From positions 1-64,000 of the forward strand of contig JYFJ02001206.1 of the NCBI GenBank assembly GCA_000934665.2: 64,000 nucleotides of DNA. The letters run 5' to 3'. The DNA comes from Catajapyx aquilonaris (lineage: Eukaryota). Shown here piece after piece: positions 1-59,993 of this stretch. The notes below the pieces were generated by a model. It was not told where the DNA came from. It saw only the letters and a list, made by a program, of their open reading frames with translations, and searched no databases. Numbering within the stretch: the first letter of the stretch is position 1; each line of letters starts with the position of its first letter. The position numbers and the translations under genes were made by a program.

Positions 1-135
1 AAAATTTGCAACATATTTAATGAATTATATTAATATATTCATTTTTATATTATTTTCATAACCTATACATGGCCAATGTTGGATTATTGATTATTATTGA
101 TATATTGAACATCGATAATTTAAACATTTGCAGAT

Positions 136-20800: not shown

Positions 20801-20979
20801 CCAGACCATCAGTTTCGTCCAACGAAACCGTATCTGTTCGGTCAGAGGTCAGCAGTGATTACATTACAGTCCTGGATGCCGGGCCCATAGTACAGGACCT
20901 CTTGAAGAGCCTAGCATCACATGAATATTCTGGACACAAGAGTCCGGTGAAAATGACCCGTAGCATTTCGATATCATAA
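17899..20979 (+). CDS. LRR receptor C (paralog of A/B; ~240-aa Ser/Thr/Pro mucin stalk)
   Basis: Exons 17899-17984, 18145-18916, 19092-19311 and 19379-20979 splice in frame. First exon MTW...KWR matches receptor A. Tail VIYDDV...SDYITV...RSISIS. Confidence 0.88.
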
Positions 20980-27142: not shown

Positions 27143-27668
27143 GCTGAAAAATCAGAATAATGTACAAAATAAACATGTGACAATGTGGGAAAAAAATGTG
27201 TCGCAATGTACATGGGAGGAATTTTTAGATGAGGAAACTGTGGTCAAGACTCGTTCCTTTCGGCCAGGAAATTCAACGGTTTCCTTCTTGATCCACAATC
27301 AAGAAATAGGTCTATATAAATTGACACAATAAATCAAGATGCTAACTTGTCATTAATCACTGATGAAATTGTATGAAGACAATACTCACAATGCTCCCAA
27401 CAGAAGACCAAAGATGTGACTGATCAGATGATAAAGTGGTAAGGATGTGAATTCATCCTCATCACAAGCTACTCCGGAAAAAATAAGCCGCAATCACATG
27501 TTAATACTGGGCGTTGATTTTTTATATTTAGATCGCCAATCCCGGTTGTGTAATATATCAGTAAAAAATTTAAAGCAATATTATAACTATTTTGTTGAGT
27601 AAAAATAACGATATCCTTCAGATTGATTGTCAATATCATGAAGTCAACAATTTGGTCGATGGCAGGAC

Positions 27669-36003: not shown

Positions 36004-36958
36004 ATTGATGCACTGTTGTTAGAAAGGGTTCACGCATGGGCGTTGTTGGTCGTTGGGCTGTTGATGTCCGCAACGACCACTACACCCGCTTGAACTAGCA
36101 ACTTTTGATTTTTTTTTTTTGCTATGCCATACCTAATGTAATGCTTGTTGCTTATGTTTCAATTTAGAGTAGTGTTTGACCTTTCATATGATTTTTATGT
36201 TGATGACCTTGTAGAGCCAATTGACATTGCTTAATTCTCTCATTATTATACCACATATGTAATGTTCTTTGTACTCACAAATTATATTTGTTGTGACAAT
36301 AAATAGTGTGCGACCCATTATTGTCTCTGAGATTTTAATTGGATATCGTATTGTGTGGCTGAGCTTCATGAACCTACGTCATCCCTTTATCCGGATTTTT
36401 TATTTTTTTTTGAAAATAAGTATGCAGAAATTTTCAGATATTTTCAGTTGGTGTTGTAACTGAATAATTGAAAACTCCATGTATTTTGGAAACATGTTTT
36501 TGAAAGAAAAGGTACAACAAATGCAAGTTATCTACGTCATATGCGTCAATATGTACTACCTATACGAGTATAAGTTCTACCGTCAGACACAAATACCTAT
36601 ATGACGCACTTATACTACTCAAATCTGCAGCCAACCTAGATTCTTAGATTTATCTATAGTATAGATACACTCTTCAGGTAGCTTCACTCTATCATGCACT
36701 ACTGACTAGTGAGATCCTGCGCATAGCAAGCGCATAGCATACAGTAGTATTAGCAAGTAGAAGGCACTGGTCCTGGGGACCAGGAAACAAAACAACTGAT
36801 GCATTGAAATGTGGTATGTATTATAATATAATAATTGTGGCGTAATTAGACCTTTACACTGTCCTGCATCACGTGACCTGTTAACTCTATAGATTACAGA
36901 GAAAGACAGGCAGATAAAAGTGCGTTGTCTGTCACAATTACTAATTTGGTGAAAAGAG

Positions 36959-38652
36959 ATGCATCTTCTCCCAAGATGTTCCTTGTTCAGCATCATATAC
37001 GTAGTCATTACACTTGTAATGTTACAAGTTACTCGTGGTATGCCTGATGATTGGACACAACGTCCAAACAAAAACGACGCCTACCTTTTGAGTAATTCTT
37101 CGTTGGCCTGGGAGGATGCCAGACGCACATGCAGATCTCTCGGTGGTGAACTTTTGACAATTAAGTCTGTCAAGGAGAGGGTAAGCTTAGCCATTCATTC
37201 GCTTGTGATTTTTGTACATGCCATTGTTGCAGAAATGGTTAGAGGGGCAGTTTGGAGAACTTACGACCAAGTGGTGGTGGATAGGAGTGAATGACTTTGA
37301 CGTAGAAGGAGAATGGAAATGGGTCGATGGAAGTTCTGTGAATGACATTGTTATGTAAGTTACATTGCATCATGTGGTAATTTGAAAACATATTTGAAAT
37401 TGTTCTCCCATTTTGTTACAGTCAGTGGGCTACCACACAGCCTAATCATGGCGAACAATATGGCGAAATATGTGCCCAATATAGCAACGAATCGAAAGGT
37501 CTGTCTGATGTGCTTTGTAAGGAACTCAGATGCTCATTATGCAGAAATGGTACAGTAAATATAATATAAGTTAGTAAAATTACCAGCTAATATTGGCCAT
37601 TATTTTAGCTAAGGACAATATGCCATACTGGAATGAACGGCTACTTTCATGGCATGACGCTTATGAGACATGTACAAGTGCAAAAAATAAAAATTCGCAT
37701 TTGTACTGGATTACTACCTCAGAGGACATGGTACGAAATATTTTCTAACTATTATCACTGTTGGCTTAATTGAATATTTTGTTTCAGGAAAAACTCACGG
37801 AACTGGCTATAAACCAGCGAAACACAAACTGCAGCGAATTCTGGATCGGCCTCAAAAGAATTAAGTCTCAGTGGAAATGGACCAATGAAGATCGTTCCCT
37901 GATGAATCCAAAAATTGCGTAAGTATTTTAATTCAGACACTGAAAAAAATTAATCCCTATTCATTATTAGGAAATGGGAACCTGGGAAGCCTGAAGAGAC
38001 CACACAGGAGCACTGTGCTGCTCTGAGTGGCAAAGGACTGTTGCACGACTACGCTTGCTATATCAACCTTCCTTTCATTTGCAAGAAGAAAATTCGACAA
38101 ATATTGCCCACTACAGGTTGGTAAACATGAACAATATTTATTAATATGACTCAAAAAAATTTAATTTAGAAAACGATGGAACCACGGAATCTACTCGAGT
38201 TGATTCTACTGGTGTGAAGACATCAGACGCATCTGACACAACGGAATTCTCGTCGTCTCTGACCAACACAGAGTTGCCGAAGAACCTACCAACAATGTCG
38301 GATCAAGATTTCAATTTAGTTACCTACATTGCGCTTGGAAGTTTAATCCTACTTGTAGTTCTGCTTGTAAGTGTTTCTCTAATAGGTTGGATGAACACAA
38401 ACTACAATCATGTACAAAATTTATATTGTGAATTTTGGCATCCAAAAAATGTCATTAAAATTATTTACATAGAGTTGATCCAATCAGCTCTGTGGCACTA
38501 ATTTATTTTCCTAATTACTAATTAGCTTATAATTTTGCGCTAATCACTCTACTTCGCAGGTTGGGAAGTTATTAGCACCTCGATTCAGAAATTATTTCCG
38601 GACGGATTACAGAAGAGGCTCTAGTGATGAAGGACCACTGCAACAAATGTAA
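36959..38652 (+). CDS. C-type lectin receptor L1: SP, 2 CTLDs, stalk, TM, short (~25 aa) tail
   Basis: 8 exons from 36959-37180 to 38560-38652. WEDARRTC, WWIGVND, QPN, FWIGL, FICKK; TM YIALGSLILLVVLL|VGKLL. Confidence 0.82.
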
Positions 38653-39322: not shown

Positions 39323-41106
39323 ATGACTGAGACAGTGTGGGCAATCTTCTCACTGACACTCATCATAATCAGTAAGTATCATTGTGTCAAAAAATAATTA
39401 GATGAAAATCATTTCAATAGTAACACACACGTCTAATATGGCATCATTATGTCCTGAACAAGGTGAGTTAGAGTGTGCTTACTATGAGGATTTACATGGC
39501 TGGATAGCCCGACCCAGCACCAACGAATCGTACATCTTCCTCAACACCACTCTTTCATGGAACGATGCAAGTAGGTCCTGCTATGGTATGAGCGCTGAAC
39601 TCGTGGTCATTCGGGACGAACATGAGAAGGTACAGTACGCTCAATATTTACCTACATTATCGTGCAAAACTAAACAAATTGTTGGCAGGAATGGCTAGAT
39701 GGCGCATTAGAAACGACCACAAATGATGATGGTTGGTGGATCGGAATGGTGAAGACCACTGAAAGAAGCTGGAGATGGGTGGACGGATTTCCTGTCCATG
39801 GTCCTCATTTGTGAGTGCATCAAATGGGACAGTTGCTCCAACCTTTAAATGTATTAACTTTACAGAAAGAAATGGATGGAGGACAAACCAACTGAGGAAA
39901 AACAGCGAGAGTGTGCAGAATTCACCAAAAATATCACAATCAACTCTGTTCCTTGCAACCACCACAAATGTTTCATCTGCTACAATGGTGAGCATTGGAA
40001 ATCTGTCTTTTATCCCATTGTTACACTATGTTGCATTTCAGAATCATCTGGACTGAACAACCTGCCAAATCCATTTTCGTACGATTCATTTGAGTTCCAC
40101 TCAGAACCAGTCACTTGGAAAAAAGCAAAGGAGAAGTGCAAGAAAAAATCATGGTCATTGCTTCAGATTCATGACAACAAGAAAAAGGTAGGCTACAGCA
40201 GGCTGCTGGTAAGTCGGATGTATGTAATGCAATATGTTGTGTATGGCAATATTTCTTATTCAGGGTATAGTGAACTATTACTTGTTGTATGACGAGAGCA
40301 GTTGCAAGTCGTGGTGGGTAGGACTGCTAGGGAAGGATTCAAAGTGGACATGGTTGGACAAGACAGCTTTGAACACAAGTACCATGTAAGCATACAGGAA
40401 CATGCTGTGCAGTTTTATTAAGTGGACAATAACTATCACAATTTATGCTTAGTCCTTGGGAAAACTCATCAAACAGCATCACTGAAGCAGGGTCATGTGT
40501 CCAGATCAACCAGGGATTCCTAAGAGAGTTTCAGTGTGATCAAAAGTTAGCTTACATTTGCAAGAAGTTTTTATACAGGCCATACAACGTGGTGCTCGCA
40601 GCTCCTAATGTCTGTTTAATAATTGGTGAGTTAACCATTAATTCCTTGATTTTTCAGTAATTTTACAGGCTCTCCTTTTCAGATAACTACGACTGCTCAT
40701 GGTCCACAATCCTAATAATATTGGGCTTGGTTGCTGGAGTCCTCGTAATCTTGGTAATGTTAATCTATCCCACACAGGATCAACCACATTAAACTAATTT
40801 CCTTGAATTCAGATAGTGATAGTGTGTTGCTGCTGCTTCAAACGCCGAAGAAATACATCGGGTCCTAGGGTGCACTTTTACAGGCAAATGTCAAGGGTTG
40901 ACCAACACATTCCGCCGGGCACCTTGAATCACAGAACTAGCCGTCCCATATCACCGAACCAGCATGTCAGTGATGAAGCCAATGGACCTTCATTTTCCGT
41001 ATCCCATGACAATACTGCCAATTGGGTGAATAGTCATCCACAGCCGATGAATGACAATGCCAGTGAAACTGTTTCAAGTGTGCACTATTATGAAGATGTG
41101 GTGTAG
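39323..41106 (+). CDS. C-type lectin receptor L2: SP, 2 CTLDs, TM, CCCC juxtamembrane, tail ending HYYEDVV
   Basis: Exon 1 is 39323-39371; WNDASRSC, WWIGM, WKKAKEKC, WWVGL, YICKK; last exon 40813-41106. Confidence 0.82.
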
Positions 41107-41950: not shown

Positions 41951-43857
41951 TCAACGACGGTCAGGAATGAGATAGCCACCCTCTTCAGCAGGACGTGATA
42001 TGTTCTGGTATTCACCTGCTTCTGGGACGCGTCTACGTCCTCCCATCTGGTCAGCGTACTCATAATCATGCACCGTTGCATAATAAGGTACCTGATCACT
42101 CTGAGCAACTGGTTTTCCACAGGACACTGTTGAATTGTGGTCTCCTGCCGATCCAGCAAGGTGCAATGCTGAACTAGCTTCTTGGTGACATTTGCTGAGA
42201 TCTCCACCTTCTGGCGGATATTTTCTGCTCAAATGGTTTCTGCAGTGTTTGTACAAGCTCCAAGCGACAACCAACTGTAATGTACAACAAAGGTGTAAGA
42301 GCGTAGCAGTAACTTATCTTTATGACACAATGATGCTAACCAGCAATAAGAGAGACTCCACCACTAGTGCTGCGATTAGTGTGCTGTACATCGCTCCACA
42401 CTCGTCCTTAGAGACAGGTGTCAATGGTGGTACTATAAATGAATCAAATAATAATTTGCTGTGGTGCATAGCAATCGATATGACAGAATGAGTGACAAAC
42501 CATGAATGTCGCACTCTGTCGTTTCCAACTTTTCGCATATGAACGGCCTCTCATCTGAACATGGATATGCATTCAGTTCTCCTTGCACAAGTTCAGCGCA
42601 GGCATCCTCAACTGCTATACCATTAGGTTCACCATTTGACCACTGCCTAGAATGCATGAAGAAAGTAGCAATGCCATTCTGTTGTCGTCTGAAGCCACCA
42701 AAAAGAAACTCACAAAACAGTTTCGTTCAGAAATTCTTCGTTAGTCCATTTCCAATAATTGGTTGACCCATATCTTTCGAGTCCGATCCACCAACTAAGA
42801 CATGTTCCTCCCCCACTTGATGTTATGATTTTCATAAGACCCTGCACATATACATTAGACCAAAGGAAAGGAAGTTACATAAAACTCCAAAGACCACCAG
42901 GTAATGGGGAACACTGAGAAATAACTTGAACTGGAATTAAAACTGGTTGTAATAATTAGTTACCGCTTCGAATTCCGTCGTGACAATGGCCAGCGACATT
43001 CCTCTTGACTCACATTCTCTTCGGGATTCATGCCATGACAACCTCTTTTCAGACGGGATGTACGCCAAGGACTGGGTTGTACCTGAAGCAGTGCCTTAAG
43101 AATTGGTACTTTGAGTGGACTATTTAGCAAGATCTAATTGCAAAATGTTACTTACTTGTTTCGCAAATGGAGCATAACTCTGCCTGACATCCACGATCAC
43201 TCAGGCGATTGTTGCTTTTGTCATATTGTACGCAGTCTTGTCTAGAATTTCCACGACTTGAATTTCTAGCTCTCTGGTTGCTAAAAATATTTGAAATAAA
43301 AAAATACGTTGTACAGAGGCCTACGTGTCCGAGTTATTGTTATTAAAATGGCTGAAATCACCACTGAAGACACTAGATGCCACGAATTGTTTGTTCAGTA
43401 CTAATTTATTGCAATACTCACGATATGCTTGTATGCAGATCAGTTCCGCTGATCCATTGCCAGTGGCCATCAGGATCTTCGAACAATCCAACAGCCCATC
43501 CAGTACGGCCAATAACTGTTGCTATCCAAGACTGCCAATGTGAAACAACAGTGTCAGTACCTAACCACGCCCATCAAAAGTACGAAATGCATACTTGCTC
43601 TTCTCGTGAACTAATTTCCATAAGGTCGCCACCCTTCTCTTGACAGTATTTTCTTGCCAAAAACCACTGCATCCTATTGATGTTGAACTGGTAACTGCTA
43701 CAGGAGTTCGGTAGTCTTATCCATTCAGGACTAAACATTTGCAGAGTGACTGCAACTATTCGAAATTATCTTTTCATCTTAGTATAATCCGGGTTGGTGT
43801 ACTGTACTTACCACTTAAATTAAGGAGAGTCAGTGTGAGGATAGCACAGCCCTTCAT
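41951..43857 (-). CDS. C-type lectin receptor L3: SP, 2 CTLDs (EPN in the second), TM containing Glu, tail YYATV/YEY/YQNI/YLIP
   Basis: 9 exons splice in frame from MKGCAILTLTLLNLSG (43857-43812) to LVVAWSLYK...DRR (ends 41951). Confidence 0.85.
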
Positions 43858-43869: not shown

Positions 43870-44035
43870 CCCTACGTGAGTTATATAAACACATGTTTTT
43901 CCACAGGATTTCGAGCGATATTGACCGGATATACGTACCGTTTCACTTGCGGTTTTCCTCCTGGTGCATGGCGTCAACGTCTTCCGGTGAATGGGAAGTT
44001 ACATTTGATTTAAAAATTTAAAAAATCAGCAAAGG
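43870..44035 (-). promoter_or_regulatory. L3 promoter module (TATA, RUNX-like TGCGGT, ETS-like CCGGAAG), with copies at about 47965-48190 and 52280-52467
   Basis: TTTATATAA (minus strand) about 25 bp upstream of the L3 ATG. Clear three-way similarity around GGTGCRTGGCGTY...TTCCGG.GA.ATGGGAAGTT.CATTTGATT. Confidence 0.6.
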
Positions 44036-44315
44036 TTGCCTATTGACACATAATAAATTGTACAACCTCCAGAGTTAATTATTATTTAGCACTGTTGATT
44101 GTAAAATGCACAAATCAATAGTTAAGCGCGAGAAAAAAATAATTTATTGGCATGTTCCACAATTGACAAGAATGACACTTTTGCAGGGAAGTCACCTGCG
44201 TCGCCCCAGACTGGCGGTGTCGTGATACACATATTTTTTAGAGGACCGTCACTGACCATATTGCGGATACTACAGCCCTACCTTCAGCGTATGCAGGCCT
44301 TTCCGCAGATACACG

Positions 44316-47300
44316 CTAGGAGAGTAGGTCAAAGTACTGGCGCGGATTAATAGGCGGCCGCGATCGCGGCCAGCCGCGGCCGATGATACGGTGGTGTGTG
44401 TTCCGGAAACTCGCACTGCTAGCATTCTCCATGATCGGACCTGGAAGAACAGGCACACCGCCATCTGGAATATGGTTCTCATGGGTCACTGAAACTTCTT
44501 CCTGATGGTCCGGACGACAACGCAGGTCGTCGTTGCTGCTGTTGGGTTGTTGTTGTTTGTCATATTTGGTTTGACTGTATCGGACCTCGCCATTGTTGGG
44601 GCACTTCATGGTGTCCACCACCGGGTGTCTCTCTGGGCGACGGCGATGGCAGCACCACACTGTCACGCAGATCTGAAGTTGAGCACACCACGTGACGTTG
44701 TCGTGAGAAAATAACGACTCATGACAACGACTGTAAAAGTGGGTTCATGCTACCAACCACAAGAATGGCACGTTGGAGGTAGGAGCATTGTGTCAGAAGA
44801 GGTGCTTACCATCAGTAAGAGACAGACCACTGCTAGTGCCGTGATCAACGATATGTTGATGATGAAGCAAGGCCCAGACAAGAACGACGTATCTTGGTCT
44901 GCTAAACACAAATTGTTCAGTTTATGTATAGGTAAGTGACACTTAACTAGTTGACAAACCATGGCGGTCGTGATCGTGTGTCTCCTCATCGGTGTCAGTG
45001 TCAGAATCACCAGTACTTTCAATAATGGTTTCCACATTTGTGGTTGTAGCTTCGGTAACTATCTTTTCGCATATGAATGGCATTGAGTGAGAGCAAGGGT
45101 AGTCGTCAAATTGTCCTACAGACAACTGAACGCAGTCTTCCTTTTGCCTCAGACCATTCGGCTCACCTCTAGACCACCCCCTGTTTAATATCAAAAAAAT
45201 AATATCAAATTTAATCTGCCCCACCAGACAGTTCTAACCACAGGCCTAAGGACTGCTGGCAAGTACCACTGTTAAAATGTGAGATTCAGTTAGGAAGAAG
45301 CAATTCACATAGTGTAGTGCTGATGACTTACAAAATTGTTTCATCCAGAAAATCTTGGTTAATCCACTTCCATTTGGTGGATTCGTGCCGTTCGAGTCCA
45401 ACCCACCATTCCTGGCAACTATCTGTGTTGTTTGCTATCACATTTCTGAGCATATCCTGTGGGCAAAATGCAGTGGTTAAGTGTAACACTTGATGATATA
45501 AATCATACTCTATGAGTCTATGTCTTTAAAAAGTTCCGGTCAAGCGTATCCATGTTTGCTATACCAGCACCAGAACTCGAGCAAGTGGTTGTACTTGTAT
45601 AGCGCCAAGAGTGGTTTGCCCTAAATATATTGTGACATCCAGTGTTATACCGCTTCATCCTTGGAAGTGACAGTGGCCAGGGACAATCCTTCGGCCTCGC
45701 AGGTTCTGTACGCTTCATACCACGACAGTGTCCTCGTTGACGGCTCGTACGATACTGATCCATTAGTTCCTCCTGAATTCAATTGCACCATGAGAATAGC
45801 ATATGGATTACAAAAATGGTGACATACGTGACTGGCACATGTAGCATAGAACTGTCTGACACCTCCTGTCGTTGAGGCCTTGATTAGATCTGTCAACTTC
45901 ACCACAATCTGCAAAGTCATTTCCATTGTTGGGTTGGCCCTCCCTCCAGGTTCTGAAATATTGTCGTGTATTGGATTGTTTTATTTAGATGGAAAGCAAT
46001 TTGTCACAGTTTATGACTCACGCTATACTGTCATCCAGCTTCCTTCTGCTTGTCCATAGCCACTGCCCCTCTACTTCAGAATCGGTCAATCCAATAGCCC
46101 ATCCCTTCGTGTCGTTTATTCCAATCACACCAATTATCCAGGTCTGACAGGAATGTTCATCAAACATCAAAATTAATATTCAAAGATTCAATTAAAATTT
46201 ACTACCTTCTCTTCCTGTGAATCAATTGCAAGCAGGTCACCTCCTCTTGACCTGCAATATTCCATGGCCGATACCCACGGAATGTGATTCTCGTTGAATA
46301 TGTAACTGCTGGACGAGTCGTTTCGAACCAGCCATAATTCAGGGTTATTGATAGTTGTGGACTCCGATGTGATGAACAGTTCGGTGGTCGACAGCAGCGT
46401 CTCCGTGGTTGTTGGCAGTGTTGTTGTTGTTGTGGGCGGAGGGGTCGTAGTCGTAGTCGTAGTCGTAGTCGTAGTCGTAGTCGTAGTCGCATTCGTCGTT
46501 GTAGTTGTAACTAATATCAAAGGAATTCAAACAATGCATCATCAATAATATCATATCATGCTGTAATACTCACTTGTCTCGCAACGAATACCATCCGCTG
46601 TAAGTCGCTGTCCTTCTGGACATGCGCAGACGGGGACAGTACCGTTGGTTGATGGGTCAGGACGGGGCAGGCACAGATAAGCGCAATTACAGGTGAAGTT
46701 TGTGGTCATCTGCCTTTCTTTTGAAATGACTCTCAGATGGTTTACATCCTGCAAGTGAACCACATTATACTTTCTGCGGCAAATATGTTACACCCTGTAT
46801 TCACAACGGTTACCGGTATGTCCACGACATTTTCTACCACTGGATTGTCCTGGCAGAACCGGTAAATCTGGGTGCCAACAGACACAAAGACCAGCCCGTC
46901 CACCACGGCCAGTCCCGTGGCGCCTATGAACTCTGACCCCTCCGACCCAACGATCTGGTGCTGTGACCCATCCGACCAGGAATAGTACGCGACATGTCCG
47001 TCCATCTCCACCCAAACCAGCGCTCCTCTTTGAGCATCGAAGGAGAGGACAGTTGCAGTACTACCCTCGCCAAGGTCCACCACCTCCTTGACCTCTGACC
47101 CATCCCCAGCTGCCCTCCATATTCCGTTTCCGGCTGTCCAGAAGAGCCAGCCGCCAATCGAGTCCACCACAAGGCCATGTGACGATCCTGGCAGACCCTC
47201 CAGAAGGGTCACGATACGTGACCCGTCCAAACTGGACACTGCCAGTGACCTTGACCCCGAGTCCTGTTGGATCCAGTACAAAAGGTCATGGCTTCTATCC

Positions 47301-47787
47301 AGGGCCAGGTCTGCGACCAGTTTGCTAGCGATTCGTACATTCCTGTATGTCGGTGGCCCATTACTGCCGAGACAATAATGTCGTTATCATAATGACCAAA
47401 GACAACGACGCTCGTGTGAACCCATCTTTACCTGAATATAGACTGGTTACGTCCGTCGCTGTACACAAAATACTGCTTCTCGGCATAGTAATCAAAAGTA
47501 GTAATGAAACCAACACTGACATTGAACAGAGGACCTAATTCATTACCACATCCTGTCAACTTCGTCACCTTCGTCTTTGTCCCGACCAGCAACGACAATT
47601 GGGATATCTCACTGTTCGCACACTGACCATCACTAGACAATGCCGGACACTCATTACCTGAAACAGAAGATGATTGATACAACCAAATCTCAACAACTCT
47701 GACAAAAAAGACCGGGTGAACCTCACCTTTGGTCCACAAAGCCACACACACAAGCTGTAACAACAGAAGATGGTACAGGTTGGCCAT
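44316..47787 (-). CDS. Chimeric receptor X1: SP, YWTD propeller, EGF, mucin, 2 CTLDs, TM, remodelled tail
   Basis: 12 exons splice in frame. Exons 1-4 match P2. Exon 5 (46510-46206) goes from poly-Thr directly into a CTLD. The remaining exons match L4. Stop at 44316. Confidence 0.85.
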
Positions 47788-48502
47788 GCTGAAAAATCAG
47801 AATAATGTACCAAATACGCATTGTGACAATGTGGAAAAAAATGTGTCGCAGTGATCATGGAGGAATTTGCAGATGAGGAAAGAGTGGTCAAGGCTCTTTC
47901 CTAATGATGTAGGCCTACATACCGTACCCTCCAAACTAAGCAGGGACCTTCATCGTCCTCACTGGGCCTACGTGATAGCAACATGTTTGTAACTAGCTAT
48001 ACACGTATTCATACGTTTTTCACCAAGGATATCGAGCGATATTGAGCGGATACAGGTGCCGTTTCAATCGCGGTTGTCCTCTTGGTGCGTGGCGTTGACG
48101 CTTTCCGGCAGATGGGAAGTTACATTTGATTACAACGTTTAACTATCAGCGAAGGTCCCAATCACGGACTAGGTATCTAAGGACTGTCCAACACTTCTCC
48201 TATCATAGCATTGGGACCATAAACACTTAAACAGGTTCCTTGTGTGTTTCCCCCATTAATCATATTTTCCAGGCCTGCTGGAATGTGTGGCATTGGAATT
48301 CTGGGAGGAGTCTCGTCCGGACATCAGCCAGTCGTACCCCTTCTGTAATTCTGTAACTGCTGCAGAAATGCACAAAGAAATAAGCGCGAGTGAAAATAAT
48401 TTATTGGCATGTTCAACAATTGACAAGAGTGACACTTTTGCAGGGAAGTCACCTGCATCTCCCCAGACTGGTTGCGTCGTAATAGTCATACTTTTCAGAG
48501 GA

Positions 48503-51500
48503 TTATACCTCCTGTTGGGGACAGTAGTTGGTGTACTGCCCACAGACACCGCCAACAGTCTGGTCCATTGAGATGGCCTCGTAGATCTCGGCATAGTCGC
48601 CACTGCCCGCATCCGATAACCTGGATCCTACAGGAGGGGACACCAGATTGGCCCTGCTGCTACCATTCCTCATGATCAGACCTGGAAGAACAGCCACAAC
48701 ACCAACTGGAACAATATGGTTCTCATAGGTCACTGAAGCTCTGTCCTGATGGTGCGGACGACAACGCAGGTCGTCGTTGCTCCTGTTGGGTTGTTGTTGG
48801 TTGCCAATTTTGGTTTGACTGTATCGGACCTCGTCCTCGTTGGGGCACTTCATGGTGTCCTCCACCGGGTGACTCTCTCGGCGGGGGGGATGGCAGCAAC
48901 ACGCCGTCAAACCGAACTGAAGTTGAGGACACAAAGTGTCGTTATCGACTGTAAAATTGGGTTCATGCTACGAACCACATAGATGACAACCCATGGAGCT
49001 AGGAACATTGTGTCAGGAGAGTTGCTTACCATCAGTAAGACACAGGCCAGTGCTAGTGCAGTGATCAACGACATGTTGACGATGAAGCATGGCCCAGAAA
49101 GGAACGACGCATCTTGGTGTGCTAAATACATTTAAAAAATTGTTGAGTTTATGTAGGTAAGTGACACTTAACTAGTTGACAAACCATGGTGGTGGTTGTT
49201 GCGTGTCTCTTCATCGGTGTTCGTGTCAGAATCATAAGAACTTTCAGGAGTGGGTTCCGCAGTTGAAACATTGGTGGTTATAGCTTCGGTAACTATTTTT
49301 TCGCATATGAATGGCCTTGGGTGAGAGCAAGGGTAGTCGTCAAAATCTCCTTCATACAATTGAACGCAGTCTTCCTTTTGCCTCAGACCATTCGGCTCAC
49401 CTCCAGACCACCCCCTGTTTAATATCACAAATTAATACCAATTTCACCTTACCCCACAAGACAGTTCTAGCAGTAGTGGCTACCACAGGCCTAAAGACTG
49501 TTGTTAAAGCCTTCCTAAGCAAATACCGGTACATAACGGTATACCATTGTTACAATGTAATATTCAGTTAGGAAGAAGCAATGATTCACATAGGGCTGAT
49601 CACTTACAAAATTGTTTCATCGAGAAACTTCTGGTTAGTCCACTTCCATTTGGTGGATTCGTGTCGTTCGAGTCCAACCCACCATTCCTGGCAACTATCT
49701 GTGTTGCTTGCTATCACCTTTCTGAGCATACCCTATGGGTAAAACGAAGTGGTTAAGTGTAACACTTGATGCTCTATGTCTTCCCGACCAAACGTATCCA
49801 TCTGCTACATGCCACCATCAGAACTCTAGCATGTGGTTGTATAGCGCCAGGAGAGGTTTGGCCAAAATTGTAACATCCAGTATTATACCGCTTCATTCTT
49901 GGAAATGACAGTGGCCAATGACAATCCTTCAGCCTGGCAGGTTTTGTACGCTTCATACCACGACAGTGTCCTTGTTGACGGCTCGTACGATACTGATCCA
50001 TTAGTTCCTCCTGAATTCAATAATAATGCACCATGAGAATAGCATATGGATTACAAAAATGGTGACTTACGTGATTGGCACATGTAGCATAGAACTGTCT
50101 GACACCTCCTGTCGTTGAGGCCTTGATTTGATCTGTCAACTTCACCACAATCTGCAAAGTCATTTCCATTGTTGGGTTGGCCCTCCCTCCAGGTTCTGAA
50201 ATATTGCCGTGTATTGGATTGTTTTACTATAGATGGAAAGCAATTTTTGTCACAGTTTATGACTCACGCTATGCTGTCATCCAGCTTCCTTCTGCTTGTC
50301 CATAGCCACTGCCCCTCTACTTCAGAATCGGTCAATCCAATAGCCCATCCCTTCGTGTCGTTTATTCCAATCACTCCGATTATCCAGGACTGACAGGAAT
50401 GTTCATCAAACATCAAAATTAATTCACAGATTGAATTAAATTTACTACCTTCTCTTCCTGTGAATCAATTTCAAGCAGGTCACCTCCTCTTGACCTGCAA
50501 TATTCCATGGCCGATACCCACGGAATGTGATTCTCGTTGAATGTGTAACTCCTGGACGAGTAGTTTCGAACCAGAGTTGTGGGCTCCGATGTGATGAACA
50601 GTTCGGTGGTTGTTGGCAGCGTTGTTGTTGTGGGCTGAGTCGTAGTCGTCGTTGTTGTTGTAACTAATATTAAAGGCATTCAAATCATGCATCATTTCAT
50701 ATCATGCTGTAATGCTCACATATTTCGCAACTAAAACCATCCGCTGTAAGTCGCTGTCCTTTTGGGCATGCGCAGACGGGGACAGTACCGTTGGTTGATG
50801 GGTCAGGACGGGGCAGGCACAGATATGTGCAATTGCAGGCGAAGTTTGTGGTGACCTGCCTTTTATTTGAAATGACTCTCAGATGGTCTACATCCTGCAA
50901 GTTAACCACATTATACTTTCTGCTGCAAATATGTTACACCTTGTATCCACAACGGTTACCGGTATGTCCACAACATTTTCTACCACTGGATTGTCCTGGC
51001 AGAACCGGTAAATCTGGGTGCCAACAGACACAAAGACCAGGCCATCTGCCACGGCCAGTCCCCTGGCGCCTATGAACTTTGACCCCTCCGACCCAACGAT
51101 CTGGTGCTGTGACCCATCCGACCAGGAATAGTACGCGACATGTCCGTCCATCTCCACCCAAATCAGCTCTCCTCTTTGGGCATCGAAGGAGAGGGCTGTT
51201 GCAGTACGACCCACGCCGAGGTCTACCACCTCCTTGACCTCTGACCCATCCGCAGCTGCCCTCCATATTCCGTTTCCGGCTGTCCAGAAGAGCCAGCCGC
51301 GAACAGAGTCAACGACAAGGCCATGTGACGATCCGGGCAGACCCTCCATAAGAGTCACGGTTCGCGAACCGTCCAAACTGGACACTTCGAGTGACCTCGA
51401 CCCAGAGCCCTGATGGGTCCAGTACAAAAGGTCATGGCTGTTATACAGGGCCAGGTCTTCTACCATTTTGCTAGCGATTCGTATCTTCCTGTATGTCGGT

Positions 51501-51926
51501 GGCCCATACCTGCGAGACAATAATGTCGTTATATAACGACCACGGACAACGACGCTCCTGTGAACCCATCTCTACCTGAACATAGCCTGGAAACGTCCGT
51601 CGCTGTACACAAAATACTGCTTCTCGGCATAGTAATCAAAAGTAGTAATGTAACGAGCACTCAGCAGAGGACCAACTTCTTTACCACATCCTGTCACCTG
51701 AGTCACCATCGTCTTTGTCCCGACCAGCAACGACAATTGGGATATCTCACTATCCTCACACTGACCATCAGCGGACAATGCCGGACACTCATTACCTGAA
51801 ACAGAAGATGACTGCTGCAACCAAATTCCAACAACTATGACAAAAGAAGACCGTGTGAACCTCACCTTTTGTCCACAAAGCCACATACACAAGCTGTAAC
51901 AACAGAAGAACGTACAGGTTGGCCAT
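48503..51926 (-). CDS. Chimeric receptor X2: same propeller-EGF-mucin-CTLD-CTLD-TM-tail architecture
   Basis: 12 exons in frame from MANLYVLLLLQLVYVALWTK (51926-51866). Fused exon about 50663-50449 reads TTELFITSEPTTLVRNYSS. Tail ends QYTNYCPQQEV. Confidence 0.85.
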
Positions 51927-52690
51927 GCTGAAAAATCAGAAGAATGTACAAAATACACATTAGGACAATGTGGATAAAATGTGGATGTGGTCGCAATGTA
52001 CTGTACATGGAGGAATTTTTAGATGAGGAAAGAGTGGTCGAGCGTCTTTCCGTTCGGCCAGGAAATTCAACGGTTTTCTTCATGGTCCACAATCAGAAAA
52101 TACGCATAAGTTAAGTGACACAACAAATCAGCTAGGTCCTAACTCGTTGATAACTGATAAAAAATTAATGTGTGAAGACAATACTCACAATGCTTACGAC
52201 AGAAGTCCAAAGATGTCTGTTGACTTGTGTTTAGACGATATAGTAGTAAGGATATGAATTCATCGTCCCATGCACACAATTTTCACCCAGGATATCGAAC
52301 AATATTGAATGGATTAATCCGGTCAATATATAAGTACTCTTTCAATCAAGGTTTTCCACCTGGTGCGTGGCGTCGCCGTTTTCCGGCAGATGGGAAGTTG
52401 CATTTGATTACCACGTTTAAATATCAGCAAAGTTCCAATCGCGGACTAGGTATCTAAGGACTGTCCACTTCCCCTCTTACAGCATTGGGAGGGACACGGG
52501 GAGGTAATGCGGTACGGAACCACAGGCGGCGCGCTGATCGTGGCCCAAACCGAAGAGGAGCACTCCTCCATGGTGAGTTATTATTTAACACTGTGGACTT
52601 CAGAAATGGACAAAGAAATAATTAAGCGCGAGCGAAAATAATTTATTGGCATGTTCCACAATTGACAAGAATGACACTTTTGCAGGGAAG

Positions 52691-54968
52691 TCACCTGCGT
52701 CTCCCCAGACTGGTGGCGTCGTGATACATATACTTTTTAGAGGAACCAGAAGACTGCTGATAGGCCATGTTTCCGTAAACAGGCTCTTCCTCCTGTTGGG
52801 GACAGTAGTTGGCGTACTGCCCACAGACATCTCCAACAGACTGGTCCATGGAGATGGCCTCGTATACCTCGGCATAGTCGCCACTGACTATATCCGGAGA
52901 CCTGGATCCTCCAGGAGGTGCCACCAGGTTGGCCCTGCTGCTAGCATTCTCCTTGGTTAGACCTGGAAGAACAGCCACACCACCAACTGGAACATGGTTC
53001 TCATAGGTCACTGAAGCTTCTTCCTGATGGTCCTGACGACAACGCAGGTCGTCGTTGCTTCTGTTGGGTTGTTGTTGTTTGCCAATTTTGGTTTGACTGT
53101 ATCGGACCTCGCCCTTGTTGCGGCACTTCATGGTGTAGAAGTCCTCCACCGGGAGTCTCTCTCGGCGACGGCGGTGGCAGCACCACACTGTGATTCCAAT
53201 CTGAAGTTGAGGACACCACGTGTCGTTGTTGTGAGAAAATAATGGCTCATGACAACGACTGTAAAATTGGGTTCATGCTACCAACCACAAGAATGGCACG
53301 TTGGAGGTAGGAGCATTGTGTCAGAAGAGGTGCTTACCATCAGTAAGAGACAGACCACTGCTAGTGCCGTGATCAACGATATGTTGATGATGAAGCAAGG
53401 CCCAGACAAGAACGACGTATCTTGGTCTGCTAAACACAAATTGTTCAGTTTATGTAGGTAAGTGACACTTAACTAGATGACAAACCATGGTGGTGGTGAT
53501 CGTATGTCTCCTCATCGGTGTCCGTGTCAGAATCACCAGTACTTTCAGTAGTGGTTTCCACAGTTGAAACATTGGTGGTTGTAGCCTCAATAACTATCTT
53601 CTCGCATATGAATGGCCTTGAGTGAGAGCAAGGGTAGTCGTCAAATTGTCCTACAGACAACTGAACACAGTCTTCCTTTTGGCTCAGACCATTCGGCTCA
53701 CCTCTAGACCACCCCCTGTTTAATATCAAAAATTAATATCAAATTTTACCCTGCCCCACCTGTTCTAACATTAATGCCTACTGCCTACCCTAAGGAGTGA
53801 TGGTAAAAGAAGCCTAAGCAAGTACATACCGATATTAAAATGTAAACCGTTAGTAAGAAGCGATGCTGATACTTACAAAATGGTTTCATTCAGAAAATCC
53901 TGGTTAATCCACTTCCATTTGGTGGATTCGTGTCGTTCGAGTCCAACCCACCATTCTTGGCAATGGTCTGTGTTGATTGATATTACCTCTCGGAGCATAT
54001 CCTGTGAGTGAAATGCAGTGGTTTGTCATAACACTTGGTACTGTAATACTTGTCCAAAATAAAGTTTTGGCCAAACGTATCTTGTTGCTATGCGGTTGTA
54101 TAGCGCCAAGAGAGGTTTGCCCAAAATGGTGACATCCAGTGTTATACCGCTTCATTCTTGGAAGTGACAGTGGCCAGTGACGAACCTTCAGCCAGGCAGG
54201 TTTTGTACGCTTCATACCACGACTGTAGCCTAGTTGACGGCTTGTACAATACTGATCCATTAGTTCCTCCTGAATTCAATTACACCATGAGAATAGCATA
54301 TGGATTACAAAAATGGGGACTTACGTGATTGGCACATGTAGCATAGAACTGTCTGACACCTCCTGTCGTTGAGGCTTTGAGTAGACCGGAAAACCTCGCC
54401 ACAATCTTCATGGTAATTTCCATTGTTGGGTTGGCCCTCCCTCCAGTTGCTGAAGTATTATATTCGACTGTTGTACTATAAATGTCATGAAAATTGTCAG
54501 AGTTTATGACTCACGCTATACTATCATCCAGCTTCCTTCCGCTTGTCCATATCCACTGGCCCTCTACTTCAGGATCGGTCAATCCAATAGCCCATCCCAT
54601 AGTACCATTTGTTCTGGCAATCACTCTGATTATCCAGGACTGACAGGAATATTCATCAAACATCAAAATTTATAATTTAAATATTCAATTAAAATTTACT
54701 ACCTTCTCTTCTTCTGAATCAATTTCAAGCAGGTCACCTCCCCTTGACCTGCAATATTCCCTGGCCGATACCCACGTCATTTGATTCTCGTTGAATATGT
54801 ACCTTCCTGAGGAACCATGTCGTACCAGCCATTGTTCAGCATTCAACCTGTTTGCTGTTAACGTACCTGCAAACACCACATTTAGTCATACACTTTAGAA
54901 TTACAAGTGAATGTACAGTACATACCGATACTGAAGTATGCAAGTATGAGAACAGCCCAGCCTTTCAT
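52691..54968 (-). CDS. C-type lectin receptor L4: SP, 2 CTLDs (QPN, EPN), TM, long multi-Tyr tail; donor of the 3' half of X1/X2
   Basis: Own signal exon MKGWAVLILAYFSIG (54968-54926) and exon 2 at 54866-54703. Tail YSQT, YENH, YAEVYEAI, YANY, VYGNM, YMYHD. Confidence 0.87.
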
Positions 54969-55222
54969 TGTATTCACTTATTACTTGCTAGAAATGTCTG
55001 CACCAACTTTTCAGTGGGGAATTTAAGCGGAAATAGCAGGGGGCGATATTTCACCGCAGTTTTCCTTCTGACGTCACGCGGTTAGGAGTCTAACAGTCTA
55101 TTGATATAGCTGAGACTACAAAAGTGCACTAACACAAATAAATGCATACAATGTAGCTTTATTTTTCAACATATCCTCCTTGAAGCAATCTATGGTACAA
55201 TACATTAAAAATCGCAACCCCA

Positions 55223-57125
55223 TTAGAATCTTCTCCTGTCCAAAGTACTAGCGTCCTGATAGTAATAGACTTCTCCCAGATTGGGCTCGTATCCTACGTT
55301 GACCCTGAGAAGAGACAACCTCCCATCCTCCTGTTGTTGGTGGATGTTAGGCACCATGTAGCCTCCAGAAGTACTATTGCTGTATATGGAGCTGGTCGGT
55401 ACGTCGTAGTTTCCACTGACGACAAAGATACGTTCAGTCGACGACCCAGGTGTAGGTGTCCTGTGGCTCACACTCTGCTGGAAGGTTGCCACACTCGGTG
55501 GACGGACATTTGGGGTCGGAGGTTCCTCCAACTGTTGGTCCTGGTCGTTGATTTTGGTCAGAGAGCTAGTGTAGCTGAATTCGTCGTCTGCGTTACCGTA
55601 GGCGTAGAGCAGATTGTTGTCGAAGTAGTCCTCCGACGAACGCTGCTCTCGGTGCCGGTTGCCGTACCACTTTATGTCCAAAACCTGGAGAGCATTGCCC
55701 CTCATTGTATTGTTTACACGCTCCAGGAGGTAAAGAGACTGTAACAAACCTTTGTCACGATGCAAACGATGGTCAGAAGTGCGCTCGATATGATGATGAT
55801 AACGGTAGAATCGCCGATATGGTGATCTGCAACAGCTGAAATTATTGTAGATGAAGCACTCTTATTGTTAGAGTCCTGATATCTGTAAAAAATACAATAT
55901 GTCACTGTATGAAACATTCCCGACCTTCAGATTCTGCAAGTGTCCTCTTACAAATATAAGCGCCCCTAAAATGACAACCGGAGTCAATTACTTTCCCTTC
56001 ACGATCCAACCATGCGCAGTCTTCTCCCAACTTTCCACCAGGTTCTCTGGGTGCCCAAGTCCTGGTAATGAACAAAGGTAAGCAATAATGACGTATGCAA
56101 TGTAATGGCTTTCTGAGAAAGTGAATACTTGCAACAAGGAAGTGTCCAGCTCATGATTTATCCACCTCCATTTGTCACCCATCCTTTCCAGTCCTATCCA
56201 CCATGAGTTACAAAAGCTAGTGTCTTGTGATATCATATGTTGAAACAAGCCCTGCGCAAAGTGGATCCCTCGTTTCAACATAATACTCGTACAGTCAGGT
56301 CACTGAATACACCATTAATATTACCAATTCCAGCTGAGACGTGACCGTAGCCAGTGTCCAACCTTGTTCCTGGCATGCCTTCACCGAGTCGTACCAAGTC
56401 TTTCCTAGCGAATATTTCTCCTGTGAAGCGACGAAATTATTTTCTACAAAATAAACAGAAAACATTGAGGATCTCTCTATAAGACACACAGAGATACTGC
56501 ATACCTGTTTTACAAACAAAACACTTTCGACTATTACACGAAGAGTCCAATATCCTTGAATCTCTCCTTCGATACTCGACGCAATCTACAGGTCTGCCGT
56601 TGTCAGGCTGTCCGAACACCCATTGGCTGTAAAATTAGGAAACATCATCGTAACAAGGTGCCAACGATGCACCTGGTACTACCTTACAGTACTGTCGAAT
56701 CATAGGGTGTGCCATCTTCCCACACCCACCAGCCTTCTTCTTCCCAGTCACTTAGTCCTGTGGCCCAATACACATTATAACTTGCTATAGAACCTTTGAT
56801 AAATTCCTGTTGGGCCAAAATGTCAAGTCAAAAGGTCTTCAACTACATAATCTTTCAAAAATATCTTACCAGTTCTTCTGTCGAACGTATGTCTGTCAGG
56901 TGTCCGTTCTCTTTTTGACAGGCACGTCTAGCACTTCTTCGTGACACAGACACATTGCAAAACAGGTACGAATCGGAAGAATTGGGACGTCTGATCCAAT
57001 TGGCACAAGGTTGAAGGGCATCAAAAGTATCTGAATAGATTGCCAAAACAAGTACTAACGATTTGATCAAAATAATCAGGTACGTTACCTAGTACGAGTA
57101 TGAGCCAAACAATAAGCAGCTTCAT
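55223..57125 (-). CDS. C-type lectin receptor L5: SP, 2 CTLDs (QPD, EPG), TM, tail with YDVP/YMVP/YEPN/YYYQD
   Basis: MKLLIVWLILVLG signal exon; in-frame CTLD exons; tandem paralog of L6, including upstream sequence. Confidence 0.82.
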
Positions 57126-57644
57126 ATTATAATCGGTGAGTCACTGCTATATCACATCCGAACAACCTTACTAACTCGGCTCTAGTGCTTGACGATAATA
57201 TTCAGCAACGGAATAACCGCCACCGGAAAAATGGCCTTATCACACTTTTATATAAGACTTCCTTCCACGCATATTCTGACGCATCAGGTGCCAAAATGCA
57301 ATCAAAAATGGCAATGTTTACCACCAGAAGCTTGTGTGTAGTTTTATCCTGGCATGAAGCAACACACATCGCATCATGTACGCCACTGAAATGATGCTCA
57401 TAGTGGACAATACCAGCATCCATTATGGGTCCACTCTGCTTTCCTTCATATCGCTTGAGTATAAACTAAATAATAAGTAGTTCAACATCTATACAAATCA
57501 GATTTATTTTTTAACACACCGAAACAGTACGTAAGAAGCATTAATAAATTAAATATGATAACTTTAACTCACATTAGGCTAATTTACATGTCAACCATAT
57601 GGCAGCTACCTGTACACGCCATTGCATTGGTTTGTGTTGCCCCA

Positions 57645-59549
57645 TTAGAATCTTCTTCTGTCCAAACCACTAGCGTCTTGATAGTAATAGACTTCTCCTA
57701 GGTTTGGCTCATAACCAACGTTGACCCTGAGAGGAGAGTACCTCTCGTCCTCCTCCTGCTGGTGGTGGAAGTTGGGCACCACGTAGCCTCCCGCCGTACT
57801 GTTGCTGTAGATGGAGCTGGCTGGTACATCGTAGTCTCCACTGACTACAGCGAAGTTGCGTTCAGTCGACAACCCAGGGTTGGGTGCAGGAGGCCTGTGG
57901 GTCACACCTCGCTGGAAGGTGGCCACGCTCGGTGGACGAGGAGGGACCGTCGGCGGTTCCTCCGATTGTTGGGCCTCGCAACAATGGTCCCTGTCGCGGA
58001 TTCGGGTCCTGGAGCTGGTGTAGCTGAACTCGCCGTCTGCGTTACCGTAGGCGTAGCGAAGCTTGCTGGTGAAGTAGTCCTCCGACGAACGCTGCTCTCT
58101 GCGACGATGGCGGTACCACGTTATGGCCAGAACCTGGGGAGTACAGTCGACAATTGTTTACACGATCGAGGAGGTGAAGCGACTGGAACAAACCGTTGTC
58201 ACGATGCACAGTAAGGTCAGTAGTGTACTCAATATTATGACGACGATAGTGCAATAGTCAGGATGGTAATCTGCCACAGCTGAAAAATAGTTGATACAAT
58301 TAACTCTAATGTCGCCTTGTCAATTATGTTCTGGCATACTGAACCTGCATGTGTCCGTTTGCAAATGTACGGAGTGTCGTAACGACAACCGTAGTCGCCT
58401 ACCCTCCCATCAGTATTCAAAGATGCACAATCTTCTCTGTAGTTTCCACTAGGCTGTCCAGATCCCCACTGCCTGGTAATCAACATATGTAAGCAATTCA
58501 ACCGTACACAACATAATGTCCTTCTGAGAAAATGAATACTTGCAACAAAAAAGGGTCCAGCTCATCTAGATTCAACCACCTCCATTTGTCAGCCACTGTC
58601 CTCTCCAATCCTATCCACCATCTGTCACATGAGCTGTTGTCCTGCGATACCGTCTGTCGAAACAAACTCTGCACATATGTTTAGTGTTAACCCTTTGTTT
58701 CTACATATACAGATCACTAGAAACTTCACCAATATTACCAAGTCCTGCTGAGACGTGATCGTGGCCAGTGTCCAACCTCGATTTTGACATACCTTGGCCG
58801 AGTCATGCCAATTCTTCGCTTCTGAATTTATCTCCCGATCTTGTGAAGCGACAAAAAATGGCAGCCCATTAATTTCTACAAAATAAATAAAATACAGTGG
58901 ATTATTTCCATGACAGTGTGTGGGATGCAGCATACCTGTTCTACAAACAAAACACTTTCGACCAAAACATGAAAAGTCATTTAATCTTGAATCGCTTTTT
59001 CGATATTCAACGCAATCTATAGGCCTTCCGTTGTTCGGTTGTGAGTTATCCCATTGGCTGAAAAAAGGGAATGTCAGTATAACAGGGTATGGACAATGTA
59101 TCCGTTACTAACTTACAGTACTGTCGAATTAAAGGGTGTACCATCTTCCCACAACCATCGACCTTCTTCTTCCCAGTCACTCAGTCCAATTGCCCAGAAG
59201 CTCACATTATAATTTGATATACAACCTCTGATAAATCTCTATGGAGGAATATGAATGTTAATTTCAAGTAAGAACGTCTTCAACTGTATCTTACCAGTTC
59301 TTCACTAGAACGTATGTCTGTCAAGTATCCTTGTTCCTTTTGGCAATGACGTCTAGCACTTCCTATAGACACAGACACATTGCAAAACAGGTACGAATAT
59401 GAAGAATTGGGACGTCTGATCCAATTGGCACAAGGTTGGGCATCGAAAGTATCTGATTAAAAAATATCGCCATTACAAAATATAGCCAGATTGATCAAAG
59501 TAGTTACGTTACCTAGTAGGAGTATTAGTCCAACAATAAGCAGTTTCAT
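57645..59549 (-). CDS. C-type lectin receptor L6 (paralog of L5; QPN, QPS)
   Basis: MKLLIVGLILLG signal exon; same exon layout; tail GDYDVP...GGYVVP...EVYYYQDASGLDRRRF. Confidence 0.82.
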
Positions 59550-59993
59550 AGTCGGTGACTCACTGTTGTATGACACCCGAACAACCTCACTAACTCGACT
59601 CTAGTGCTGGCAGATAATATTCAGCAGCGGAATTCCCGTCACCGGAAAAAGGCTCTTATCACACTTACACGCATTTTGGTTTCCTTTCACGTACATTCTT
59701 ACACAACAACTCTAAACACAGTTGACATAATATTTTAAAAAATGGCAATCAAATTCATATACAAAAAATAACGACTGGTCGACTTTTTATGTATGAGTAG
59801 CATTACAATGGTTTACATGTAGTTTGAGCATACAGTTTTTGGGTATACTGTACACAAAATGGACACACAAAGTGACTCATGCTTATGACGGCATATCTGA
59901 AGTGATAAACACAACAGGGTGACTATATGAACATTTTGTCAACAGATGGCATGAACTGGGCCAAAAATCAGTCCACCAACCACTACATGACAA

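Follow-up and report, generated by a model that had tools for sequence, protein, structure and literature searches.

Chimeric genes formed by joining parts of duplicated neighboring genes are well documented (Buljan et al. 2010, PMC2926785), with examples among the tandem-duplication chimeras of Drosophila yakuba (PMC5460883) and the fusion genes of Oryza (PMC9199173). In the cases that these sources describe, one gene copy supplies the 5' end and its regulatory DNA, another supplies the 3' end, the source genes are retained, and the product carries a new domain combination. The same pattern is seen in a 64,000-nucleotide stretch of the genome of Catajapyx aquilonaris (GenBank assembly GCA_000934665.2, contig JYFJ02001206.1, positions 1 to 64,000 of the forward strand; hereafter the window), where two neighboring genes, X1 and X2, resemble one receptor-like gene (P2) in their 5' halves and another (L4) in their 3' halves. 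Unlike the chimeric genes described in those sources, X1 and X2 are joined inside coding exons of both partners and yet remain in frame, and the chimera appears to have been duplicated itself and to be still exchanging sequence with both of its sources. As an event, domain gain through the fusion of duplicated neighbors is already known. At this locus the structure is real, and the probability that X1 and X2 are chimeric protein-coding genes, built by in-exon fusion within a tandem array of receptor-like genes, is placed here at roughly 80%.

Gene structure and the fusion junction

The X1 gene was modeled by reading three frames by eye, choosing GT-AG introns that keep the frame, and checking the joined translation; the exon borders of X2, P2, and L4 were transferred from X1 by alignment. 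None of the four models contains an internal stop, every intron is GT-AG, and intron lengths range from 44 to 194 nt, with many short introns. The models are as follows (TM, transmembrane).

44316-47787, minus strand: X1, candidate chimeric gene; 12 exons, 833 amino acids, open, GT-AG at 11 of 11 introns
X1 exons 1-6, minus strand: 47787-47727, 47657-47432, 47363-46805, 46748-46574, 46510-46206, 46143-46022
X1 exons 7-12, minus strand: 45952-45828, 45772-45651, 45456-45332, 45180-44948, 44901-44810 (TM), 44672-44316
48503-51926, minus strand: X2, candidate chimeric gene; 12 exons, 823 amino acids, open, all splice sites conserved, GT-AG at 11 of 11 introns
X2 exons 1-6, minus strand: 51926-51866, 51795-51576, 51509-50951, 50894-50720, 50663-50449, 50389-50268
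X2 exons 7-12, minus strand: 50195-50071, 50010-49889, 49732-49608, 49414-49173, 49121-49030 (TM), 48916-48503
25044-27142, minus strand: P2, nearest relative of the 5' half, with 7 exons (exon 3 ending at 26182) and 576 amino acids; it encodes a signal peptide, propeller, EGF, and long mucin stalk and has TM (25529-25447) and tail (25379-25044) exons of its own
52691-54968, minus strand: L4, nearest relative of the 3' half, with 9 exons and 515 amino acids; its own signal-peptide exon (54968-54926), two C-type lectin-like domains (CTLD1 and CTLD2), an acidic stalk, TM, and a long tail ending ...YMYHDATSLGRRR*

An earlier reading of this DNA, made from the sequence alone, had bounded the pair exactly, 44316 being the last base of the X1 stop codon and 51926 the A of the X2 ATG, and its description of two open 12-exon models, free of internal stops and with canonical GT-AG borders throughout, agrees with the models given here.

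Homology was mapped by self-BLASTN of the window, and each of the five matches listed below had an E value of 0.

X1 44416-47901 versus X2 48657-52051: 84.2% identity over 3577 columns
X1 44416-46342 versus L4 52938-54839: 84.0% over 1977
X1 46405-47902 versus P2 25792-27258: 88.0% over 1506
X2 50638-52267 versus P2 25866-27460: 86.7% over 1642
X2 48360-50554 versus L4 52598-54809: 81.4% over 2282

The 5' parts of X1 and X2 resemble P2 at 87-88% not only in exons but also in introns and in about 200 bp of DNA upstream, and the 3' parts resemble L4 at 81-84% with the 3' flank included. The sequence-only reading had claimed such a passage from P2-type to L4-type sequence, and these matches, which run from the exons through the flanks, bear it out. 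Pairwise alignments of X1 to P2, L4, and X2 place an abrupt switch of homology inside exon 5, with P2-type sequence up to 46344 and L4-type sequence from 46343. X1 tracks P2 through ...ACAACTAT(C/T)AA(T/C)AAC and then L4 from (C/G)CTGAA..ATGGCTGG, and its protein reads ...ESTTINN|PELWLVR at this point. The corresponding sequences are ...ESTTINNNVTAQPMH in P2 and ...ANRLNAEQWLVR in L4, and at most a few bases at the join are common to both sources. The two junctions are located as follows.

46332-46352, minus strand: fusion junction of X1, with the switch at the Asn codon 46346-46344; the same 21 nt are absent from X2
50574-50575, minus strand: junction point of X2, where an in-frame deletion of 21 nt has taken out ...INNPELW

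The shared Asn codon at 46344-46346, proposed earlier as the X1 junction, is thus where the alignments also put it. X2 carries the join of X1 minus 21 nt (equivalent to X1 46352-46332) and reads ...SEPTT|LVR, as the further in-frame deletion (SEPTTLVR) previously suggested for this gene had it. The junction lies 8 codons before the end of the P2 mucin exon and 9 codons into exon 2 of L4, and the chimera is composed of nearly the whole P2 ectodomain set on nearly the whole mature L4 protein.

Domain content and predicted product

Pfam was run on single exon open reading frames (ORFs) and not on whole spliced domains, with cut-offs of 22.6 bits for Lectin_C and 21 for Ldl_recept_b. The modules assigned to X1 are listed here in protein order.

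46805-47657, minus strand: putative YWTD (LDL-receptor class B) beta-propeller, exons 2-3, from a P2-like gene
46574-46748, minus strand: EGF-like module, exon 4, after the propeller
46347-46510, minus strand: Thr/Pro-rich mucin-like stalk, first part of exon 5, assigned from translations and alignment
45828-46343, minus strand: CTLD1, second part of exon 5 and exons 6-7; QPN motif, LND at the WND position
45060-45772, minus strand: CTLD2, exons 8, 9, and the first part of 10; EPN motif, FDD at the WND position

The propeller ORF matched Ldl_recept_b at 17.1 bits (E 0.0077), below the cut-off, and the Ldl_recept_b set accounted for 27 of the 30 Atlas feature matches of the X1 propeller. HMMER recovered 3592 relatives of the X1 propeller from a representative library, the best of them no more than 39% identical, and Ldl_recept_b was present in all 115 relatives that were scanned; both results strengthen the propeller assignment. 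A word-indexed protein search with the propeller ORF yielded 3816 candidates and none at E <= 0.001, an outcome attributable to its filter. Exon 4 gave matches to FXa_inhibition (3.3e-5), EGF_LRP2 (0.0016), and cEGF (0.0093), all under their curated cut-offs. Lectin_C matched above its cut-off in CTLD1 (2.3e-5, 25.5 bits, on the exon-7 ORF, in addition to 0.0095 on the exon-5 ORF) and in CTLD2 (1.7e-5, 25.9 bits, on the exon-10 ORF), the matches above cut-off falling on the C-terminal halves of the two domains. The first of the Ca2+/sugar motifs (QPN and EPN) are canonical or near-canonical and the WND position is altered in both domains (LND, FDD); carbohydrate binding by the X1 and X2 CTLDs is plausible, not assured. 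The length of the mucin stalk is very unequal among the genes (P2 25589-25891, X1 46347-46510, X2 50576-50663), all by in-frame gain or loss of repeats.

The order of modules in X1 and X2 is propeller-EGF-mucin-CTLD-CTLD-TM, each protein having a single strong hydrophobic segment near its C-terminus and an N-terminus that, as read from the translation, resembles a signal peptide. The predicted product is a type I membrane glycoprotein with a propeller-EGF head, an O-glycosylated stalk, a tandem-lectin ectodomain, and a shortened L-type tail; transcription, membrane topology, glycan binding, and a receptor role are likewise predictions. The donor (A|GTTAAGTG) of the short intron, 44-51 nt long, that precedes the TM exon holds an in-frame TAA in X1 (44948-44940), X2 (49173-49165), and L4 (53474-53466). 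It may be speculated that retention of this intron in any of the three would terminate translation ahead of the TM segment and yield a soluble ectodomain.

Proposed assembly of the chimera

The structure would be accounted for by a DNA-level non-homologous join, with microhomology of a few bases at most, that united two pieces. The first would be a copy of the initial 1.8 kb of a P2-like gene, which begins with about 200 bp of upstream sequence, continues through the signal peptide, YWTD propeller, and EGF module, and takes in most of the mucin exon. The other would be an L4-like copy from codon 24 onward, comprising the two CTLDs, acidic stalk, TM, tail, 3' untranslated region (UTR), and flank. 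Joined in frame, the pieces would lack, on the P2 side, the last 8 codons of the mucin exon together with the TM and tail exons and, on the L4 side, the promoter, the exon for the signal peptide, and the opening 9 codons of exon 2. On the simplest reading, the P2 5' copy would have displaced the 5' end of an L4-type member of the array by illegitimate recombination or template switching; another possible route is a single large tandem duplication that reached from L4 to P2, with a later deletion. The chimera would then have been duplicated in tandem to give X1 and X2, with X2 afterwards losing 21 nt at the junction and all four genes (X1, X2, P2, and L4) thereafter swapping sequence by gene conversion. 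P2-type upstream sequence would drive the chimera. The sequences that flank the genes in the array are given below.

52051-52267, minus strand: upstream DNA of X2, homologous to P2 upstream 27258-27460, adjoining block F of L4 at about 52268-52280
43895-44245, minus strand: block F, the 3' flank of X1 (BLASTN), common to X2 48015-48502 and L4 52280-52744; AATAAA present

The block taken from P2 begins some 200 bp before the ATG, and in X2 its start lies within about 12 bp of block F. Block F comes after the stop codon of L4, X2, and X1 alike, and the order of the array is (L4 + F), (P-part + L-part + F), (P-part + L-part + F).

Gene conversion and the age of the fusion

Similarity among the four genes is unevenly distributed. 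The earlier reading had remarked on many substitutions, and X1 and X2 do differ, but the differences are unevenly spread, since sliding identity between the two genes reaches 97-99% over 46346-45780, which extends from the junction to the end of CTLD1. Between X1 and L4, identity is 95-100% over about 45200 to 44780, and their longest identical run is the following.

44740-44928, minus strand: identical tract of X1 and L4 (L4 53268-53456), 189 bp, covering the TM exon and flanking intron; sliding identity 99-100%

An identical run of this length was reached in 0 of 2000 shuffles, and on sequence grounds the tract is a recent gene-conversion tract. In the P half, the most similar pair shifts along the gene from X2-P2 to X1-P2 to X1-X2, and shifts of this kind along the genes were the reason for rejecting a simple tree as a means of dating. 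Gene conversion among X1, X2, P2, and L4 is the evident cause of the mosaic identity, judging by its pattern. Synonymous divergence (dS) between X1 and X2 is 0.16 for the P half and 0.11 for the L half, compared with 0.20-0.21 to P2 and L4, the X1-X2 value being the smallest of the three overall; given the conversion mosaic, however, divergence cannot date the fusion. The genes had been called newborn, and a young appearance is justified, but newborn status is unproven, in view of a dS of about 0.20-0.21 to the parental relatives and of conversion mosaics that spoil the dating.

The fusion could instead be old, its likeness to P2 and L4 having been upheld by concerted evolution that stops at the junction because homology ends there. 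Conversion that is active in both halves, a most-alike pair that varies along the genes, and identical runs beyond those of all 2000 shuffles fit such a history. Against it, introns share evenly in the similarity, as do about 200 bp upstream and about 400 bp of the 3' flank, and no propeller relative in the library exceeds 39% identity, so no answer comes from outside; an old origin is regarded as rather unlikely.

Constraint on X1 and X2 and the loss of the tail motif

Under the interpretation of X1 and X2 as protein-coding genes, the coding sequence should bear marks of constraint, and several are present. No stops and no frameshifts occur in 2 x 2.5 kb of coding sequence; when the 203 observed coding differences between X1 and X2 were scattered at random, 8 stops arose on average, and none of 5000 neutral simulations was free of stops. 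Indels between the two genes are multiples of three in 7 of 7 cases in exons (exon 12 omitted, the X1 end being non-homologous) versus 4 of 30 in introns (P = 3e-5), some of the in-frame exon indels being private to X1 or X2, and GT-AG is kept at all 22 introns. The ratio of nonsynonymous to synonymous substitution rates (dN/dS) stays below 1 in the folded domains (propeller, 0.37-0.62; CTLD1, 0.26-0.32; CTLD2, 0.36-0.48); for the P half of X1 and X2 it is 0.48 (P = 0.00065), and for the stalk and TM of X1 compared with L4 it is 0.36 (P = 0.04). The low values obtained for the mucin depend on the alignment of repeats and are to be disregarded.

Other observations weigh against the view of X1 and X2 as functional products of a fusion between P2 and L4. 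In the comparison of X1 with X2, which is strictly post-fusion, dN/dS of the L half is 0.75 and non-significant (P = 0.21). Values for the EGF module (about 0.8) and for the stalk and TM of X2 (0.8) are near neutral, and those for the tail are 1.3-2.5, non-significant, with 2.5 for X1-X2. Exon identity equals intron identity in every comparison (91.3% versus 91.0% for X1-X2, and likewise in comparisons with the parents). Conversion from functional parents could hold the frames open without selection on X1 and X2, and since part of the variation was imported in this way, the stop-codon argument is weakened. The 21-nt deletion in X2 takes out the Trp that opens CTLD1 in L4 and in four further lectin genes of the window (L1, L3, L5, and L6). 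Both chimeras lack the C-terminal tail motif of L4, which was lost independently and in different ways. Finally, P2 and L4 are the closest surviving relatives of the two halves and are not proven to be the literal donors; the earlier statement that both parents lie in the window holds in the sense that the closest relatives of both halves do. Selection, which had been held to be implied, is thus moderately supported by the values of 0.26-0.62 on propeller and CTLDs, but is countered by the EGF value, tail values above 1 (non-significant), equal exon and intron identity, and truncated tails. Function of X1 and X2 is plausible, and the evidence for constraint is moderate.

The lost motif, Y-x-Y-x-D-A-x-x-L-x-R-R-R followed by a stop, forms the C-terminal end of L4 and of the distantly related L5 and L6. 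The regions concerned are these.

Tail-motif regions: X1 44316-44230, X2 48503-48450, L4 52744-52691; tails of L5 (55223-55861) and L6 (57645-58157)
44245-44416, minus strand: 3' coding end of X1, non-homologous to X2 and L4 (identity 47-51%), which supplants the L4-type tail and brings a new stop

In X1, the motif was lost through this 170-bp non-homologous replacement, and a relic (...KKYVYHDTASLGRRR*) persists out of frame in the 3' UTR, within block F. In X2, a TAA lies inside a 39-nt deletion scar, and the relic is in frame downstream of the stop. The replaced segment of X1 contains a perfect 16-bp GC-rich palindrome at 44356-44371. A mobile-element origin of this 3' end was considered and rejected, the palindrome being unique in the window and no repeats having been found in 44000-44700 around the replaced end. 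The loss of the motif appears to indicate either relaxed constraint on signaling or a shift to a tail-less role.

Two accounts of the status of X1 and X2 follow from these data. In the more ambitious, X1 and X2 would be expressed, selected, lineage-specific receptors of undescribed architecture that place an L-type ectodomain under P2-type regulation, with the loss of the tail representing a functional shift (to a non-signaling, decoy, or co-receptor role) and not decay; this is a tentative proposal, possible but not favored as a whole. In the other, the two genes would have no function or be in decay, having arisen as by-products when an unstable tandem array was rearranged, their frames open mainly through conversion from P2 and L4. 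The equality of exon and intron identity, the mosaic that includes the 97-99% stretch and the 189-bp tract, the tail ratios above 1 with both tails independently truncated, and the absence from X2 of the conserved Trp at the start of CTLD1 all fit decay, but an intact frame in both copies, exon indels of which every one is in frame (private ones included), the low ratio in the P half, and splice sites kept at every intron do not, and a by-product origin is considered improbable, if less so than a reversal of the fusion.

Direction of the event

In-frame fusion of two existing genes remains the preferred interpretation of X1 and X2, and its direction can be read from unfused relatives within the window, among them the following.

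23587-24927, plus strand: P1, older unfused P-type paralog with propeller-EGF-TM-tail; ORFs with TM and tail

The propeller of P1 is 32% identical to that of X1 and P2 (tblastn), and its last exon begins like that of P2 (IVACIVRR versus VIACCVRK), although the match is weak (E 0.017). Propeller-like sequence occurs in the window only at P1, P2, X1, and X2. On the lectin side, L1, L3, L5, and L6 resemble L4 in placing a hydrophobic leader immediately ahead of the Trp with which CTLD1 begins. No other copy or relic of the P2 3' part (TM and tail) or of the L4 5' part (promoter and signal peptide) is present in the window, nor was a reciprocal recombination product found there. Because P2 and L4 are complete, with their own termini, and older paralogs are unfused, fusion is the better reading than fission, as the sequence-only reading had argued, and both the chimeric-fusion interpretation and its direction are well supported by these comparisons.

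Fission, in which a fused X-like ancestor would have given rise to P2 and L4 by partial duplication, has nothing specific in its favor beyond the fact that pairwise distances alone do not polarize the event. It would require P2 to gain TM and tail exons, yet the last exon of P2 starts like that of P1, and L4 to gain a promoter and a signal-peptide exon, yet the leader before CTLD1 is shared with the four other lectin genes; with propeller sequence confined to the four loci named above, this course of events is very improbable. Equally hard to credit is an assembly artefact, in which reads of P-type and L-type genes were chimerically joined: tandem copies of 80-90% identity are hard to assemble, but the same junction is present in two diverged copies that differ by the 21-nt deletion, by many substitutions elsewhere, and in their flanks, which excludes a one-off misjoin, and the join is in frame with splice sites intact and the sole N in the window is at 13199.

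Genomic neighborhood

The window contains a dense cluster of receptor-like genes. In addition to X1 and X2, the lectin family numbers at least seven members, and it is accompanied by a second receptor-like family, a phenoloxidase pair, and a long ORF.

55218-57247 and 57640-59666, minus strand: L5 and L6, an older tandem pair of two-CTLD genes with 73% DNA identity and long tyrosine-rich tails
36953-38115 and 39402-40573, plus strand, and 42526-43765 and 61693-61896, minus strand: further CTLD genes or fragments, comprising L1, a second plus-strand pair, L3, and one fragment
11627-20979, plus strand: several paralogous ORFs with leucine-rich repeats, an LRRCT-like region, a Ser/Thr/Pro-rich mucin, TM, and tail, with a common ...SSDYITV... 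motif; a second receptor-like family
28104-30718 and 33386-35998, plus strand: tandem arthropod-type phenoloxidase/hemocyanin pair, 78-86% mutually identical, the best database matches of an exon ORF being insect phenoloxidases at only 45-51% identity, which hints at a poorly sampled non-insect arthropod as the probable source
62599-63402, minus strand: long ORF with repeated ...P(I/V)YDDA(T/E)N... tyrosine motifs, resembling a repetitive cytoplasmic signaling tail

A single 64-kb window thus holds an unusually complete natural record of domain shuffling, with relatives of the sources, unfused paralogs, an in-frame breakpoint within an exon, a chimera that was later duplicated, a junction later shortened in one copy, and apparently ongoing conversion. 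If expressed, X1 and X2 would show an immune-type receptor repertoire gaining a new ectodomain combination in a single step, and they would offer a test case for parent-gene conversion slowing or steering the divergence of new genes.

Comparison with known receptor architectures

The architecture was compared with the best 150 of the 3592 propeller relatives, which are mostly long and repeat-rich, many with bacterial secretion or dockerin domains. The two CTLDs of L4 matched 0 of these 150 proteins (phmmer), and Lectin_C was not among the 25 most frequent of the 41 and 71 Pfam families in 115 of the 150 (the 70 + 45 shortest). A limited literature search for a C-type lectin with YWTD architecture, or for Ldl_recept_b with Lectin_C, found nothing relevant. 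These limited checks weakly suggest that the order propeller-EGF-mucin-CTLD-CTLD-TM is unusual, and they cannot establish novelty.

In the LDL (low-density lipoprotein) receptor family, a propeller of YWTD blades is followed immediately by an EGF module. X1 and X2 likewise place the propeller directly before an EGF module; unlike members of that family, they have no class A repeats (Ldl_recept_a had no match on any X1 exon ORF in Pfam) and no NPxY in the tail as translated, and the best library relative of the propeller is at most 39% identical.

Among invertebrate recognition proteins, the LDLa C-type lectins of shrimp (MjGCTL, LdlrLec-type; PMC5379193) are similar in pairing an LDL-receptor-type module with a CTLD and in showing EPN/QPD-type variants. 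As described in that source, however, they combine a class A (LDLa) module with one carbohydrate-recognition domain, MjGCTL consisting of signal peptide, LDLa, and this domain only, whereas X1 and X2 have a class B (YWTD) propeller, EGF, mucin stalk, two CTLDs, and TM, and LDLa was not found in them. Attractin, as presented in PMC8636034, is also a large type I protein with beta-propeller, EGF, and CTLD in one ectodomain, but its propeller is of the kelch type and is accompanied by CUB, laminin EGFs, and a single CTLD with no mucin stalk between; neither CUB nor Kelch matched the X1 exon ORFs in Pfam, and no homology is implied. The group XIV CTLD receptors, exemplified in PMC9471012 by CD248 (signal peptide, CLECT, CCP, EGF, TM), share the type I membrane topology predicted for X1 and X2 and the presence of CTLD and EGF modules. 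X1 and X2 depart from the order typical of this group and of selectins, in which EGF/CCP modules come after one N-terminal CTLD. The single CTLD in that account is N-terminal, whereas the CTLDs of X1 and X2 are two in number and membrane-proximal, and their EGF module is part of the propeller unit.

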